Of a DNA stretch of 64,000 nt, positions 18,001 to 42,000 are shown in pieces. The position numbers are program-made. Location: NCBI GenBank assembly GCA_963708135.1, contig OY970192.1, positions 4,736,001-4,800,000 of the forward strand, written 5' to 3'. The stretch is from an uncultured Gemmatimonadales bacterium. Its GTDB lineage: Bacteria; Gemmatimonadota; Gemmatimonadetes; Longimicrobiales; RSA9. Position 1 is the first letter of the stretch, and every line of letters starts with the position of its first letter.

Positions 18001-21000
18001 CTGGCGAGAATCCGGTTGTCGAACCGCAATAGCGAGCACGGATGGCGGAGGCGTTACTCCGGTGGCTACCCGCGGCCACAATGAATTGGGTGCGTGAGCG
18101 CGTGAGATGCTTGACGGGGACGAGGCGCCGACTGTACTTTGGTCGGCGGCAATGAGTAGGTGAGCGCGTGAAAGGGTTTCGCTTGGACACAACAAGCTAT
18201 CTATCCAACCTCGGCATCGAGCTGGCCGCGCCCGCGCTCCCAACTATTGGTCGCCTGGCGCTGATGGGGGAGTTCCTCCTCGGCGGCAACCGCGGTGTGC
18301 TCCTTCGCCCCAAGCGTGGCAAGATCTCCACCCGGTATCTGGAGGTGCTCGGCCGTGAGGGCTTCGGGCTTGCGGTCATTGATGGAACTGGCTTCCCCAC
18401 GTTTTACGCCCGCGAGGGCGAGGAATTTGTACCGATCCGGGCCTTGCCCGTACTCCACCGGCGGTTTTTCCCCTCGGAAGCCGTCCTCGACGCATGGGCG
18501 GGTCTCATCCGCGATGCGGCAACTCGAGGGGAAGCGGCGCGAGTGGGCGTGGGGCAGTTGCTTACCTGGCTCGGGGACGACTCACGCTTCGACGCGGCCC
18601 TCGTGCTTCCGCACGGAGACCTGCCCATCGAGCAACTTGGTGGAGACGAAACGGTAAGCGCCGAGCCCTTCCGAACGGCGGCCGCCTTGCTCGCCGGGTT
18701 TCGAGCGCAACCCGAGTCGCCCGAGGAGGTCGTTCGCCTGCTGGGCGCGGTCTCGCCGCTTCTCACCGACATTGGTGATGTCTCTGGTCTGATGGAAACC
18801 CTCACGCCGCTGGTCCGCGTTGACGGGCTCGGAGCCCACCGATTGTTGGTCTCGCATGGCATCGGTGCGGAAGTGGCTGCCCTCTTCGGAGCGGAAGGCA
18901 CGATGGTCCTGCCGATCGAGCTCCGAGTTCTTGAGCCGCTGCTGCTGCGGCTGCTGCCCAGCATCGACTGTGTGTTTACCGACTTTCTGCAGTTGAGCTC
19001 GGAGCGCTCCTACGACGGTGTCATCGTAGTCCCTCCGGTCGGTATTCGCCTCAGCGGAGCCCAGCTTGGCGGATACGATCTCGCGAAGCGGGGAGGCAAG
19101 GTACGCAGCGGTGTGGCCGCAGAGCTGCTGTTCGTGGAGCGCGCCCTCGCAGCAGTGGTCGATGGTGGTCTCCTTGTGACGGTTCTGTCGGAAGGCTTGC
19201 TCTCGAGCGCCGGTCATGTGGACTTCCGAGAGTGGCTGCTTGATCGCGCGCGCCTGCTGGCGGTCGTCAGCCTCCCTGCGGGAACCTGCTTCCCCGGGAG
19301 CGGGGTGAAATGCTCCGTCGTGCTGCTCCGAAAGCCGCCCGAAAAAGACTACTCGATCCTCATGGTCGAGGTAGAGGCAGACGACCTCACAGGCGAAATC
19401 GCGGCGGCACAATCGAAGCTCCAGGAGTTCCTCGAACGGGAGGTGCCGGCATCCGCGTAGCCACGCTCTCCCGCAGCGGCCTCGGAAAGTCGCACGTTCG
19501 ACTCGACCCCGCCTTCTACGTCGGCCGCGACCTGGTTCGCTCGACGATGAATTCCGAGAGCAGTCGACACGTTCGCCTGGAGGACATGGTCGAGTTCATT
19601 CAGGACGGGGCGCGGCTGCCGTCGGCAGAGCCGGGCATTCCGATGCTCCGCTTGAACAACGTGCTGCCCTGCGAGCTCGACTTGAGCGGCATGGCCCTCG
19701 TCGACGGCGCCGCGGCCAAGTGGGTGAGCGTTCGGGAGCATGATGTCCTGTTTACGCGTGCTGCTCAGCCGTTTCGCGCCGCCGCTGTGCAGCCCGGCGT
19801 GCCGGCGGAGCTCGCCGCGTCGTCGGAGCTCAGCATCATTCGGCCCCGGCCGGCCGTATTGCCCGAGTATCTCGCCGCAGTCTTCTGCACACCAACGCTC
19901 AACCAGATTCTGCGACACCTCGCCTATCGGGGCCGCTCGTCGGCTCTCCCGCGCCTGCGTTTATCGGACATCGCACGCCTGCCCATCCCGCTCCCCCCGA
20001 GGAGTCTGCAGGAGGCGCTGCGGCAGCAGTATCAAGGGGCGGTCGACCTCACCGCGAGCGCGCGTGTCGAAATCAGCGCAGTGGTGTCGGCAATTCATGC
20101 CGAGATTGATCACCGCGTCTGGGGTACGGAGCCTCCCAGGAGAGCCATCGAGGTGCGTCGCTCATACCTGCCAAACCGCTGGGATGTGCCATACAATCGC
20201 GGCCGCGGTTTCCGAGAATCCTTGGCTGCGTCCTCAACGATGCGACCGCTGCTTCAGCTTGCGAGTCCGCGGACGTCGAGCCTCAGCGGTCTCACCGACG
20301 AGGAGGAAGTCTTCCTTGTTCAGGCCAACGACGTGAACGAGGCGAGCTTCCTCGTCGAGGGCGGAGAGAACCGTTCTCTCGCGGGACTCTCGTCTCGCAT
20401 GCGCCAGCGGCTCGAAGTCGGGGATGTCCTCCTCTGCACGACGGGATCGGGCGATCAGGTCGCCTACTTGGATGAGGATCTCGGACGCGGCGGAGAGTCG
20501 ATCCTCGGAAGTGCGACGTTCACGGCTCTTCGCTTCCGCGAGACACCCCGCGTCTTCGCTGTCGCTCTCGCCCATCCTGTGGTACGCGAGCAGCTGCGCC
20601 TGCTCTCGTCAGGGTCAGTGCAGCGCTTCATCAACAAGCGTGACCTCGACGATCTTCTCGTCCCCGTTCTCGGTGCTGTTTGGCGCGGGGACTTCGAGAC
20701 GAGGCTCACCCAAGCGATGCAGCGGCGCCGGGAGGCTTTGCGGGCGCGGAGTGCGCTCATCGAGGTGGCCGACGAGTACCTGAGGGAGTTGAGCAGTCCT
20801 TCCCTTGCCCTTGCCGGGGGAAAGGACGCATGACCGGCCTCATCACCACGAAGATCCGTGACTTCCTGATCGGCCGTGGTCCTGCGACGCCCGAACGCGT
20901 GGCGGAGGCCGTCCCCGAGCTCGCGGAGGCGGGAGGTGCGGAGCGGGCCCTCTTGCTGATGCGGCTCGACCCCGCCCTCGAGCGCACCGGAAGCGAGATG

Positions 21001-39000: not shown

Positions 39001-42000
39001 CGTCCGCGTGGACTCGGTGTGGTTCGAGAAGCAATCGGGCGAAGCCTCGCTCGCGTTTGAATTCGAACGGTTCGAGCGCGGCGACAAAGGGAAGCTGCGG
39101 GGCAAGGTCGAGAACCTTGCAGTCGCGTCGACCGCGGCCCCGAGTCTGAAGCTGTGTGTCCTGATCTACTGGGTGCGCAGCGGCTCGGCTCCGCGGAGCA
39201 TGGACGCGATCATCGCGAGCTACCGCGACGGCTTCCGGCGACGTGGCATTGTTGTGGCCCCGGCGCGCACGCCGTTGATGATCATCAAGTGCGTGATGCG
39301 CCCGGTACCCAATTCCGACCGGCTGGTGTTCGGCGAGTTCTTGCGCGACGAGCGCAACGAGAGGCTTGCGCTGGGCAGGGCAGAGCCGTGGCGCTGATCC
39401 TATTCCGTGGCAAACCCGGCGAGGAGCTGGGCGATCGGTTTCGCTTGCTGGCCGAGCTCGGCAAAGGGAGCTTCGGCGAGGTGTGGCAGGCACGTAGACT
39501 GAAGGATGGTGCCACGGTCGCGATCAAGATCCCGAAGGACCAGGAGAAGGGCGAGGAGGTGCTTCGCAAGGAGTCGGACATCATCAGGGACATTCACCAT
39601 CCGAACATCGTTCGCGTCCAAGGCTTCCACAACATCAGCGAGCTTTTCGTGATAGAGATGGAGTTCGTCAATGGCTATGACTTGGCGAAGGTCCTCGATA
39701 GCGTCAGTACCCGGGCGCCGCTCACCTTCGAACAAATGCTCGAATGGACGCTGCAGATTCTCGACGGTTTGGCTGCCGTCCACGCCGCGAACATATCGCA
39801 CAACGATCTGAAGCCGCAGAACATCCTCGTCGATAAGGCGTCCGGGGTAGCGAAGATCACTGATTTCGGATTGAGCCGCCGGCTCGAGGATGTCTGGGTG
39901 TGGACCAAGCGCCACGGCACGGAGGCGTACATGGCCCCTGAGGTCGCTCTCGAGGGGAAGCGCGCTCGGGACGTGACCGACATCTACTCGATCGGCGTCC
40001 TACTCTACGAGATGGCCACGGGACGGCTGCCGTATTCTACCCCGCATCAACTGCTCACCGGGGTGCAGATCGCAAAGCCTCGTGAGGTCAACCGCGATGT
40101 GCCCGCCGACCTGGAGGACGTGATCCTTCGTGCGATGGCGCGGCGGCCCGAGAGCCGTTTTCAGACCTGCGGATCGATGCGCGCCGCCGTGCAAACATGC
40201 CTTGTCCGGCTGCGCGCCGACGCGGCAACGGCAGCCATGCCGGCTCGCTCGGAGCCCAGCCAGCTCGGCTTCCGGCCGCCCTCGTCCAGCCCGCTTTACT
40301 ACCTCGAGCTTGCTAAGCAACGACTGGCCGCGGGCGATGCTGAGGGCGCCCTGGGGGCGGCGGAGGCGGCTGTGGATCGAAGCGACGGCCATCCGCAGTA
40401 CCTGCGAATGCTCGGCGGCATCTGCTTACGTTTGGGTTACGACCGCAAAGCAGCCGAAGCATACGAGCAGCTGCTCGCCGCCTTCGATCGGGGCTACCCG
40501 GTGGAAGGACATCTACGAAGGGACGTGTTCGAGCGACTTGGTCAGCTGTACATCAACCTTCAGCGGTACGGAGAAGCCGTAGCGATCTACGAGCGCCTCG
40601 TAGACGCCCTTGACCGGCCATTCTCCCGCTTCCGACTGGCTGTCGCTGTGGGTCTCGATGGCGACTATGGGCGCGCGATTCAGTTGCTCGAATCCGTTCG
40701 AGCAGAGCGGCCAGACGCCGTCGTCGTCTACTCCAAGCTCGGGTGGGCCCACGCGCTCAACGGGAACGATCGTGTCGCGCTCAGCTTCTACAACCAGGCC
40801 CTGGCCCGGGACGCCTTTGACCTGTTCAGCCTCTTCGAGCTCGGGAAGTACTACTACATGCTTGGTAGCCGCCGACGCGCTCGGGAGTACTTCGAGCGGG
40901 TCATGGACGCAGACAAGCAGGGGGGCTACGCCGATCGCGTGCGTGAGCTCACTAACTCCAGTGCGTGAGCCGTCACACGGCGCCCACCTGCAGACGAGTC
41001 ACAAGCAACACTCACACGGAAGGCCGGCACGCCGAAACTCTCTTGTCGTAGCCAGCCGGCCAGCGGCTCGTGAAAGCCGCCGGCCGGCCGTCAATTCAGC
41101 GGAGACGTGCCCCAACTTCTTGGGCAGCTGCCTCCACCTCAGCGACCACTTCCCTGAGGAAGAGGTTTCGGTCGGGTGACGGGACGACATCCGGGACAGG
41201 TGCTGCCGGCTCGTAAATGTCGTCACCGATGATCCGCGCACGCACGAAGGTTGAGCCAGTGCCGTGCTTGTCGTAGGCGTCTCGCCATTCGTTCGCGCGA
41301 TCCCGCCACACACGGCGCGTTGACAGCTCCATCAGTCGGCTCGCGATGTTCTCGGCGATGGCGTCGTACGTGGCCTGCTCCTCGTCTTCAGTAGGTTCCG
41401 GCCCCTCCCATTCAAGCGGGTTCTGGACGAAAACGTAGATCTTCTGGGTCAGCTCGCGCCGGAGATCAGCAACGGGCTTCAACGTGTCGTATTCGTCCGC
41501 CATCCCGGTGGCAAGCCGCCTGCTCAACGCCTTGACGCGGGTCCAGTGTTCCTTGGTCATAGCCACGCCAGACTCCAGGCCCAGCCGCTGCCGCCATGCA
41601 TGCTGGAACGCTTCGGCTGCGCTGCGGATCCCGAGTACGAGATCCATTCTATCATATACCGGTTGAGCAGATGCCGGCTGCGGACGATCTACCACGTCTT
41701 CGATCGCTTGCAGCAGGCCGCGAAGTTGCTTTACCGTTCGCCTTCCTGCGGCGGTATTCGTTGCCAGTGGCTCGTGTAGGCCGCCTAGGAAGAAGCGTGC
41801 ACCATCTAGGCGCTTTCGCACTGCACGCTCCGCATGCGCACCCAGTTCCTCGCCGAACGCAGCCAGCACGTTCTCGGCCGACGCCAGAACGTGTTGAGCC
41901 TTTGCATCAGCGTTAGGGAGGTTGTCACCTTTCACCTCATCGAAATGGGTGAACGCGACGATGAGCTTACGCGCGTTGCCAGTGGATATGATTTCGCGCA

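Follow-up and report, generated by a model that had tools for sequence, protein, structure and literature searches.

Published descriptions of the anti-phage system MADS (mad1-mad8; Pseudomonas aeruginosa SMC4386; 10.1101/2023.03.30.534895, PMC13662399) and of HerA-Orc/CDC6 neighbourhoods (PMC10853773) combine the same kinds of parts as the operon analysed here. MADS too is a long operon, in which an N6-adenine methylase and a type I-like specificity subunit are joined by a Ser/Thr kinase and by a HerA-type ATPase that adjoins a presumed nuclease; its preprint names an 11-gene 'MADS-like' system as well (10.1101/2023.03.30.534895). The HerA/FtsK-Orc/CDC6 'capture' systems (Rakesh, Aravind, Krishnan, NAR 2024, PMC10853773) have in common with it a HerA/FtsK ATPase, a large AAA+ ATPase (here g53, whose Orc/Cdc6-likeness was reported by an earlier survey), a stand-alone protein of several winged helices that evolves fast and is akin to DndG, SspB and FokI (here g52), and nuclease candidates alongside. 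Further likenesses link the operon to BREX, type 2 in particular (Pgl: PglW kinase, PglX methylase, PglY ATPase, PglZ), through marking by methylation together with a kinase and a large P-loop ATPase; to type I restriction-modification, through HsdM-like and HsdS-like subunits and the classic exchange of two HsdS target-recognition domains (TRDs); and to the HerA-NurA end-resection pair and HerA-based defence, through a HerA gene directly after the ~380-aa g55, which Atlas and UniRef tie to NurA.

The window, the whole 64,000-nt stretch of DNA analysed, provides the numbering used below (position 1 is its first letter), and gene g42 stands for g04042, and so on. The conserved unit, ~18085-40985, is one operon of ~23 kb on the + strand, probably an unnamed relative of MADS. 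The co-linear row of + strand genes reported for 18168-40968 is borne out by the window gene calls. The 15-gene module g44-g58 recognized by the survey is real, but the unit begins at g42: the methylase/specificity pair said merely to precede the module does lie upstream, yet both genes are part of the unit. Since g42 and g43 belong to it and g50 and g51 are one gene, the operon comprises 16 genes, given here with its leader.

18085..18167, + strand: conserved leader upstream of g42, where similarity to relatives starts (blastn, 5 upstream loci)
18168..19460, + strand: g42, methyltransferase-like, 430 aa (N6_Mtase E 6e-5, mad2 E 5.5e-12)
19457..20833 (start approximate), + strand: g43, second HsdS-like specificity subunit (Specificity_I E 1.6e-15, mad5 E 1.1e-9; PADLOC)
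20830..21207, + strand: g44, small conserved protein, 125 aa (aligned in 7 loci)
21221..23224, + strand: g45, gamma-class N6-adenine methyltransferase, type I HsdM-like (PADLOC MTase_I E 8e-115, N6_Mtase E 1.8e-20)
23221..24681, + strand: g46, type I HsdS with two TRDs (PADLOC Specificity_I E 3.6e-37)
24678..25136, + strand: g47, small RuvC/RNase H-like, first variable slot (RuvC 7w8d_A E 0.0089, PDB profile search)
25133..26269, + strand: g48, Hanks-type Ser/Thr kinase, first variable slot (Pkinase E 1.7e-26, PD-T4-6 E 1.4e-38, mad6 E 4.4e-29)
26266..27493, + strand: g49, conserved, 408 aa (single ORF in L001, L005, L002 and L013)
27490..29788, + strand: g50-51, one gene of ~765 aa, second variable slot (Mrr_N, EVE, DUF7669 and a C-terminal domain)
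29785..30960, + strand: g52, multi-winged-helix, DNA-binding-type by fold resemblance
30957..35036, + strand: g53, P-loop ATPase with a long tail, 1359 aa (Walker A GDWGLGKT, Walker B IIVDEVE; alignment)
35033..35941, + strand: g54, conserved, 302 aa (alignment)
35938..37077, + strand: g55, probable NurA-like partner of HerA (Atlas and UniRef labels)
37074..38774, + strand: g56, HerA/FtsK-type translocase ATPase (DUF87 E 1.5e-38; PADLOC HerA E 2.3e-58, mad8 E 4.7e-29)
38771..39397, + strand: g57, conserved, ~205 aa (alignment)
39394..40968 (start approximate), + strand: g58, Ser/Thr kinase with C-terminal TPR repeats (Pkinase E 1.8e-49, TPR families, mad6 E 1.5e-64)

Among the marking genes, the methylase motifs of g45 (DICCGTG and NPPF) are intact, and the enzyme looks active. 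Its neighbour g46, taken by the survey to be without a family, is an HsdS by its PADLOC match, and its two recognition domains have been exchanged between loci that are otherwise ~90% identical: TRD1 recurs at 93-94% identity in L005, L011 and L013 and TRD2 at 92-93% in L006 and L013, and the TRDs of the other close loci stand at 24-35% identity where they match at all. This swapping accounts for the 28-32% identity previously noted for g46. The other specificity subunit, g43, is not hypervariable, with 69-81% identity for both halves across the 5 upstream loci, 75-79% for the portion present in L004 and L006 and 46-49% for the distant copies. Its companion g42, 58-65% identical in 5/5 close genomes, matches N6_Mtase only over residues 311-405, and its catalytic motif IV is degenerate (VPPV in the window; VPPF, IPPF or VPPL in relatives) and non-canonical in 9/9 aligned orthologs. 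The small g44 matches no known family in Pfam and PDB searches.

The middle of the operon holds two variable slots, which in other loci carry known defence-associated genes: YhcG/DUF1016 nucleases, a caspase-like protease, a Schlafen AlbA_2 protein and a PtuA/AriA/mad3-like ATPase paired with an AriB-like protein. In L018 and L010 a slot is occupied by an OLD-like ATPase together with a partner of Toprim type; in L018 this ATPase matches mad3 at E 1.1e-16. In the window, g47 is weakly RuvC-like in sequence (Pfam DUF3010 at 0.06; the L017 analogue matches RuvC at 0.073), and its first catalytic Asp is absent, GIAPS or GIRTAS standing where GIDPG is expected. The kinase g48 has HRDIKPAN and DFG, and the canonical G-loop and VAIK are missing. 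All three domains of g50-51 (Mrr_N, EVE, DUF7669) were found by Pfam on the intact L010 ORF. Between the slots, g49 belongs to no known family by Pfam, PADLOC, PDB and Atlas searches.

In the second half of the operon, residues 5-276 of g52 resemble BrxA, FokI and SspB in fold in a structure model, and residues 277-365 form a winged helix. For g53, Pfam gives a weak AAA_22 match (E 0.056) and a PDB sequence search gives none. The translocase g56 is 85-87% identical even to its counterpart in the low-GC clade, and the g55 gene adjoining it probably encodes a NurA-like nuclease, a prediction resting on an Atlas language-model search (scores 0.97, 0.96 and 0.96 to clusters with PF09376 NurA in 38, 34 and 12% of members) and on three UniRef homologues labelled 'NurA domain-containing'; Pfam gave no NurA hit, a PDB profile search no support, and the AF2 model (pLDDT 37.5) is unusable. 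Neither g54 (PDB and PADLOC) nor g57 (PDB and Pfam, without a real match) falls into a known family; g57 possibly carries a putative PD-(D/E)xK-like motif pattern. The catalytic set of g58 is complete (GKGSFG, VAIK, HNDLKPQN, DFG, APE).

The Pfam and PADLOC matches listed by the survey recurred (N6_Mtase, two Pkinase, Mrr_N-EVE-DUF7669, DUF87/HerA, mad2, mad5, mad6, mad8), as did the absence of mad1, mad3, mad4, mad7 and PglZ from the PADLOC scan. The MADS-like label is partly supported: the type I-like M and S pair, the Ser/Thr kinases, HerA and the mad2, mad5, mad6 and mad8 matches recall MADS, but canonical MADS is rejected. No MAD7 occurs among 17 operon proteins (PADLOC) or genome-wide at E<=10, MAD1, MAD3 and MAD4 are missing from the window, and the NCBIfam models MADS2 (127 bits; 126.9 for g45), MADS5 (82) and MADS6 (165, for g58) stay far below their cut-offs of 720, 400 and 460. 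The operon also has twice the genes of MADS; the additional ones include g52, the 1359-aa g53, the Mrr_N-EVE protein and a further, degenerate methylase that comes with its own HsdS. The BREX-like label is weaker than stated, and the operon is not BREX: there is no PglZ (PADLOC), and g53 shows no sequence likeness to 10 BrxC proteins (hhalign profile comparison, probability 1.3%); moreover, instead of PglX the operon has a type I-like methylase whose HsdS is a protein of its own, and g58 matches PglW only via the shared kinase domain. Unlike type I restriction-modification, the operon has no detected HsdR, and the ATPase, HerA and nuclease-like genes would replace the restriction side. Passages on the 'capture' neighbourhoods mention neither a methylase/HsdS pair nor kinases, and an inactive REase inserted into the ATPase, plus an active REase, counts among their described features (PMC10853773).

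The window copy itself departs from its relatives. Split in the window, g49 and g50-51 are each a single ORF in all relatives examined (408 aa for g49; a single frame in 6 relatives for g50-51); both splits are due to +1 insertions, at 26445 and 28948, at one and the same 14-nt motif. Ten GTCGAC->GTCAAC changes turn Asp into Asn, including at residues invariant elsewhere (g55 D102N and D143N; g53 D226N and D1321N); among 119 same-length g55 homologues, residues 102 and 143 are D in 119/119, and residue 374, likewise D374N in the window, is D in 113 and E in 6. Private changes in g52-g58 number 244, against 23-116 in 12 other actinomycete loci compared. With substitutions at invariant residues, the copy in the window is possibly impaired. 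That it is a decaying, non-functional relic would suit these changes and both frameshifts, but we regard this as a doubtful reading: contigs of an independent build (run X1), which match the window exactly elsewhere, have neither of the inserted letters, the Walker A/B, NPPF and kinase motifs are intact, and the operon genes are free of internal stop codons.

The 16 genes are linked by translational coupling and travel as a group. ATGA overlaps occur at 12/15 junctions and terminator-like sites within the unit are not enriched (10 observed, 9.5 by chance), which together argue for a single unit. In blastn comparison with the 5 upstream loci, similarity begins at 18085-18244, within ~80 nt upstream of the g42 start, where an imperfect 26-nt direct repeat lies (18087-18112 and 18153-18178), and it ends at the g58 stop or <=~20 nt from it; g42 is upstream in 5/5 close genomes tested and also in distant loci. 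Two or three functionally uncoupled systems could instead be travelling together, namely an orphan type I-like methylase set, kinase abortive-infection genes and a HerA-nuclease system. Defence genes do cluster in islands, the two slots are modular with contents varying by locus, and PADLOC catalogues PD-T4-6-type kinases and HerA systems each as its own system. This explanation is nevertheless improbable, given the start-to-stop overlaps, the exact bounding of the unit by g42 and g58, an order g42..g58 common to two clades sharing only 26-87% aa identity, and halves that never occur apart in the loci examined, though fragmentary contigs could hide cases.

The survey's count of 26 related loci was confirmed: 14 close ones (83-91% nt identity) and 7 distant ones are co-linear, and the other 5 are fragmentary. 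Its claim of g44-g58 in order in 13-14 loci holds for order in the 14 close loci, but all 15 genes are present only in 11/14, most of g50/g51 being replaced by other sequence in L004 and L006, and g47/g48 being absent from L010. In the 7 distant loci the order is likewise kept, but g50/g51 is missing, except for a related gene in L022. Spread across phyla is supported by g55 at 86-94% in named Burkholderia and Corallococcus records, although some phylum labels come from MAGs and one contig carries conflicting labels. The island has a low GC as reported (0.61-0.70 versus 0.72-0.74 outside), and, besides the large serine recombinase seen earlier (744 aa, 4123-6357, - strand), it holds genes for an AAA_25 ATPase and for an IS4 transposase; the flanks do not match, the window's own having no tblastx match in 31 loci. 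It is very unlikely that the operon serves a mobile element, as a DNA-handling, partition, transfer or epigenetic addiction module on an FtsK/HerA pump and Orc/Cdc6-like loader: such ATPases are also described from mobile elements in passages of PMC10853773, the island holds the three genes just named, and a DUF932 gene follows g58 in three distant loci, but the flanks, recombinase included, differ between loci, g53 relatives are absent from 72,556 plasmid records, and a diversifying HsdS with slots of nucleases, caspase-like protease and OLD-like pairs suits defence better.

With moderate confidence we favour a methylation-based defence against incoming DNA, its plan related to MADS and the 'capture' systems, a role suggested by gene content and context; against it stand the absence of HsdR, PglZ and MAD7, the negative NurA tests of g55, the unlikeness of g53 to BrxC, the four genes that match no family (g44, g49, g54, g57) and the possible impairment of the window copy. 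The composition of the operon is best matched by a hybrid in which a type I-like marking module is joined to an Orc/Cdc6-HerA 'capture' module and to kinases. In such a defence, g45 and g46 would put m6A on host DNA at a bipartite site; a sensing layer for unmarked DNA would be made up of the methylase-like g42 and its constant HsdS partner g43, two winged-helix proteins (g44, g52) and the large ATPase g53; the HerA motor g56 and the NurA-like g55, perhaps with g54 and g57, would take in and degrade that DNA; and the kinases g48 and g58 (the latter with its TPR sensor) would control the response or serve as its backup, while the Mrr_N-EVE protein g50-51 would contribute modified-base recognition. 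The comparison of loci supports an operon that is nearly unchanged among distantly related bacteria, a conserved module that moves horizontally.

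The module forms an uninterrupted row of plus-strand genes, g42 to g58, between positions 18168 and 40968 of the window, within an island whose GC content (0.61–0.70 over positions ~4000–45000, against 0.72–0.74 outside) is as low as the survey had found. Stop and start codons of adjacent genes overlap as ATGA at 12 of the 15 junctions, and terminator-like sites within the row show no excess (10 found, 9.5 expected from shuffled sequences). Similarity to related loci begins at positions 18085–18244 and ends at 40952–40985, and tblastx of the window flanks matched none of 31 loci, in agreement with the earlier observation that flanks never match. 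These limits and the unmatched flanks indicate that the moving unit runs from g42 to g58 with a short leader. The co-linear row of 15 genes, g44–g58, described previously stands, but its start does not: the unit begins at g42, which lies upstream in all five close genomes tested (58–65% identity). Genes resembling g42 and g43 also head the operon in three further relatives (L017, L020 and L024), and the pair belongs to the conserved unit. Neither repeats indicating an hsdS shufflon between g43 and g46 nor a tRNA within the 64-kb window were found. Two elements associated with DNA mobility lie in the same island, the first of them already noted by the survey as a neighbour of the module.

Mobility genes near the module
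4123–6357, minus strand: large serine recombinase of 744 aa, in the low-GC island
16571–17740, minus strand: IS4-type transposase, just upstream of the module

The island also holds an AAA ATPase, an ExoVII-large-subunit-like gene and an AAA_25 ATPase gene, just after which lies an inverted repeat, perfect over 24 nt and separated by a loop of 6 nt (14563–14616). Directly downstream of the module, a 790-aa ORF without a Pfam family (41096–43468, minus strand) occupies the part of lowest GC (0.61), and an ORF at 44228–44878 (minus strand), matching an aldo/keto reductase profile at positions 66–110 only, may represent only part of a gene, close to where the island ends on the right. At 53161–61365 (minus strand), an ORF of 2734 aa shows a GC pattern of coding type.

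Searching with g53 and keeping one genome per species yielded 26 loci, which tblastn of all module proteins sorts into three groups. The close group comprises 14 loci (L001–L014) with the gene order of the window, 12 of them in actinomycete genera (Micromonospora, Streptomyces, Actinomadura, Actinacidiphila, Actinokineospora, Amycolatopsis and Saccharothrix), one in a Myxococcota-labelled MAG and one in a Gammaproteobacteria-labelled MAG. L001 comes from Micromonospora halophytica DSM 43171 and L013 from Saccharothrix sp. CB00851. The order reported earlier is retained in all 14, but the complete set of g44–g58 in only 11: in L004 and L006, other sequence replaces most of g50/g51, and L010 lacks g47 and g48. 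The distant group consists of seven loci with a GC content of 0.43–0.51, found in Desulfobacterota and in one MAG each of Brocadiaceae and Gracilibacter, and the third group of five fragmentary loci. No relative of g53 was found in a plasmid collection. Accessions for g53 include WP_091299064.1 and WP_246909153.1, and one for HerA is WP_246909159.1. Eight close actinomycete loci share 86–92% nucleotide identity with the window, and L001 shares 83–91% with the two MAGs over long conserved blocks. The MAG-based phylum names need care, because L010 (RZZN01000043.1) carries a Gammaproteobacteria title while a g53 homologue from a contig of equal length (31137 bases) bears a Sphingobacteriia label, which makes the taxonomy of L010 unsafe. 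The spread across phyla that the survey proposed is nevertheless supported beyond Actinomycetota without recourse to MAGs, by g55 homologues in named records of Burkholderia (93–94%), Corallococcus (86%) and Nocardia. In three Desulfobacterota loci (L017, L020 and L021, at 19961–21154), a DUF932 gene follows g58; in L020, the next gene (21155–22222) combines HARE-HTH and Mrr_cat domains and is type IV restriction-like.

Comparison with the relatives also revises the gene models. In every relative examined, g49 is a single ORF beginning on the g48 stop, and g50 and g51 are likewise a single ORF, so that the two genes listed separately by the survey are one, split in the window by a +1 insertion. 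Alignment with eight close loci shows just two uncompensated indels in the window's module, one extra base at 26445 and another at 28948, both within the same motif: CTGGCA-C-CTGACGC in the relatives and CTGGCA-TT-CTGACGC in the window. This 14-nt motif encodes Trp-His-Leu-Thr in both g49 and g50/g51, and the genome holds only two copies of the string, at the two insertion sites. Contigs of an independent build (X1), which may share the window's sample and therefore represent an independent build and not an independent organism, equal the window over 26200–27308 and 27715–29200 bar one omitted letter per site; they lack the extra letter at 26445 and 28948, yet carry the same silent C-to-T change. 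As both inserted letters are missing from these contigs, the splits of g49 and g50/g51 are probably assembly errors and the frames intact in the DNA. As called, the g50 ORF has a long 5′ extension into g49; translation most likely starts from the ATGA at 27490, in agreement with the 768-aa ORF of L010.

The head of the operon encodes a predicted marking module. The protein g45 matches the PADLOC model MTase_I at E 8e-115 and carries motif I as DICCGTG and motif IV as NPPF; it is a type I-like N6-adenine methylase. Its neighbour g46, which the survey had left without a family, matches the PADLOC HsdS model at E 3.6e-37 and is assigned as HsdS on this basis. The low identity of g46 among close loci noted earlier (28–32%) is real, and is fully accounted for by the exchange of recognition domains. 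In split comparisons, TRD1 is 93–94% identical in L005, L011 and L013, and TRD2 92–93% identical in L006 and L013; in the other close loci, the TRDs are 24–35% identical where they match at all, and the C-terminal conserved region is 65–86% identical in all 14, the pattern of classical domain exchange. The second pair differs in both subunits. Only the C-terminal part of g42 matches methylases, and all nine orthologs have V/I-P-P-F/V/L instead of the catalytic N/D/S-P-P-F/Y/W, while its HsdS partner g43 is not hypervariable (69–81%). We infer that g42 and g43 are a conserved, probably non-catalytic pair for DNA recognition.

Matches of g56 to DUF87 (E 1.5e-38), HerA_C and HAS-barrel, and to the generic PADLOC HerA model (E 2.3e-58) better than to mad8 (E 4.7e-29), identify it by homology as a HerA. 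No other protein of the unit is as strongly conserved, identity to the low-GC clade being 85–87%; within one operon, the contrast between this value (against L017, L018 and L024) and those of its neighbours g54 (26–35%) and g57 (53–59%) is unusually steep. The adjacent g55 is a probable NurA-like protein, as suggested by the label 'NurA domain-containing' on three UniRef homologues and by its language-model neighbours, Atlas clusters at 0.97, 0.96 and 0.96, of whose members 38, 34 and 12% carry PF09376. None of eight g55 family members matches Pfam at E<=10, the PDB profile search with g55 contained no NurA chain, and NurA genes for a profile comparison were found in none of 121 genomes. An AF2 model of g55 from eight sequences was unusable (pLDDT 37.5). 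Of the two kinases, g58 has a complete set of Hanks motifs and TPR repeats, and g48 has HRD and DFG motifs and no canonical G-loop.

The ATPase g53 contains Walker A and B motifs and matches AAA_22 at E 0.056, with no match to PADLOC or NCBIfam models. For g52, which has 87 relatives among 1.84 billion representatives, a 45-sequence alignment gave a confident model (pLDDT 88.6); hhalign against the ORFs upstream of BrxC, presumed to be BrxA/BrxB, produced no match. The protein g47, which lacks the first catalytic Asp, gives three weak, concordant signals of RuvC/RNase H type, and relaxed Pfam scans of the other family-less proteins added nothing to these hints. PDB profile searches gave nothing credible for g44, g49, g52, g53, g54, g55 or g57; for g57, the only row below E 0.1 was a fortuitous match to part of the translocation domain of a botulinum toxin. 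No family was found for g44, g49, g54 or g57, nor a usable Atlas match for g49. An acidic motif pattern in g57 is our own reading of the alignment.

The distant loci retain g42–g46, g49 and g52–g58, and two positions vary.

Contents of the two variable slots
Slot g46–g49, window clade: RuvC-like g47 and kinase g48
Slot g46–g49, L017, L020, L021 and L024: small g47 analogue and kinase, as in the window clade; L021 also a YhcG/DUF1016 nuclease
Slot g46–g49, L018: YhcG/DUF1016 nuclease, then a PtuA/AriA-type ATPase (mad3 E 1.1e-16) and an AriB-like partner
Slot g46–g49, L010: PtuA/AriA-type ATPase and AriB-like partner
Slot g46–g49, L016: caspase-like protease and YhcG/DUF1016 nuclease
Slot g46–g49, L022: Schlafen AlbA_2 protein
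Slot g49–g52, window clade and L022: Mrr_N-(EVE)-DUF7669 gene

Defence islands typically carry such genes as accessory sensors and effectors, and their presence is the strongest contextual indication that the module serves in defence. DUF7669 was not mentioned in the literature searched.

How the module relates to described systems was judged against four of them. MADS is an eight-gene operon, with MAD6, MAD7 and MAD8 mandatory in the detection model set out in the available text of its description (10.1101/2023.03.30.534895), and comprises two OLD-like ATPase–nuclease pairs, MAD3/MAD4 and MAD7/MAD8 (PMC13662399, in part). The module matches mad2, mad5, mad6 and mad8, but not mad7. As in the survey, no mad7 was detected in the module's 17 proteins (E<=0.01) or the whole genome (E<=10), a search in which control genomes gave no match either; none of 401 genomes of the window's class had one. 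The PADLOC model mad6 matches g58 at E 1.5e-64. The NCBIfam scores fall far short of their cut-offs: 165 bits against 460 for MADS6, which a generic PknB model outscores, 126.9 against 720 for MADS2 and 82.3 against 400 for MADS5, the last two denying family-level membership in MAD2 and MAD5. The OLD-like ATPase and Toprim nuclease of MAD3–MAD4 had no match in the window, unlike L018 and L010, whose slots hold the mad3-like ATPase or a similar pair. The missing mad7 and these scores place the module outside MADS as that system is defined; an 11-gene 'MADS-like' system (madl1–11) is also named in the first source, and this system, compared by name only, may already cover it.

BREX proper is excluded on profile comparisons, because PglZ and BrxC are both without a match: no PglZ model matches any of the 17 proteins, as the survey had stated, and hhalign of the g53 alignment against ten BrxC proteins gave a probability of 1.3%. 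Type I restriction–modification requires three subunits, of which HsdM-like and HsdS-like ones are present, whereas no HsdR or helicase-nuclease was matched among the 17 proteins in Pfam, PADLOC or NCBIfam. HerA/FtsK–Orc/CDC6 neighbourhoods, in the sections of PMC10853773 available, combine an Orc/CDC6 ATPase with HerA/FtsK and REase domains, and some of them also encode a multi-wHTH protein akin to DndG, SspB and FokI; BrxA-like and DUF4007/SspB-like proteins are unified in the available part of PMC12839542. A capture system was defined here by an AAA+ ATPase from the Orc/CDC6 family with a REase insert that is inactive and a winged helix at its C-terminus, a multi-wHTH protein of the kind just named, an active nuclease of restriction-endonuclease fold and a HerA/FtsK ATPase, the last being represented by g56. 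The products of g52–g56 agree in kind with the parts described in that work, where these loci may already be listed. We therefore file the module as a type I-like marking set with kinases, of the kind seen in MADS, joined to a HerA–Orc/Cdc6-type capture core.

The window's copy further departs from its relatives at ten sites that read GTCGAC in eight close loci.

GTCGAC sites changed to GTCAAC in the window
23188, 24978, 31476, 31629, 31845, 33321, 34914, 36238, 36361
37054 (GTTAAC)

Thirteen other conserved GTCGAC sites are retained. Nine of the ten changed sites lie in frame as GTC GAC and convert Asp to Asn, including D102N and D143N of g55, where Asp is found in 119 of 119 same-length homologues, and D226N and D1321N of g53, at residues invariant across the family. 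The changes are almost always G to A on the plus strand (GTCAAC against GTTGAC, 16 to 1 in the module and 10 to 12 in the rest of the window), and the window's overall spectrum of private changes is ordinary. GTCGAC, a SalI-type palindrome, is depleted in the host genome (1062 observed, ~2842 expected). Genome-wide observed/expected ratios for in-frame GTC-GAC, GTC-GAT and GTC-AAC are 0.35, 1.53 and 1.12, which points to long-term avoidance by synonymous choices; as GTC-AAC shows no genome-wide excess, a general base-calling artefact is unlikely. Three explanations may apply: mutation directed at these sites after the DNA was newly acquired, an error of the local assembly at the ten sites, which lie outside the read-covered stretch, and selected inactivation of the nuclease.

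Taken as a whole, the module may tentatively be viewed, at somewhat less than even odds, as a family of its own among restriction-like systems, very large and as yet unnamed, with an active marker, a dead-methylase reader, a capture-and-destroy machinery, two kinases and a moving cassette. The diversifying type I methylase would mark self, and the catalytically dead methylase with its constant HsdS would act as reader. DNA lacking the mark would be captured and destroyed by an Orc/Cdc6-like loader together with a winged-helix protein of BrxA/SspB type and a motor–nuclease resembling HerA–NurA, with the two kinases in control. Transfer between phyla would involve the entire unit as a cassette from promoter to stop, in which two plug-in slots accept additional sensors and effectors.

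Provided that it functions in defence, the module links MADS, BREX-related systems and HerA/FtsK capture systems in one operon. The conserved combination of two methylases, one active and one degenerate and both with a separate HsdS, suggests a testable way of reading unmethylated sites without a classical HsdR. The exchanges offer natural experiments, those of HsdS domains because they should alter the methylated motif, and those of the slots because they tell core from accessory parts. With 83–91% nucleotide identity across actinomycete genera and the two MAGs labelled Myxococcota and Gammaproteobacteria, and 86–94% amino-acid identity for g55 in named records of Burkholderia and Corallococcus, the unit also marks recent gene flow over a long range among soil bacteria of high GC content.
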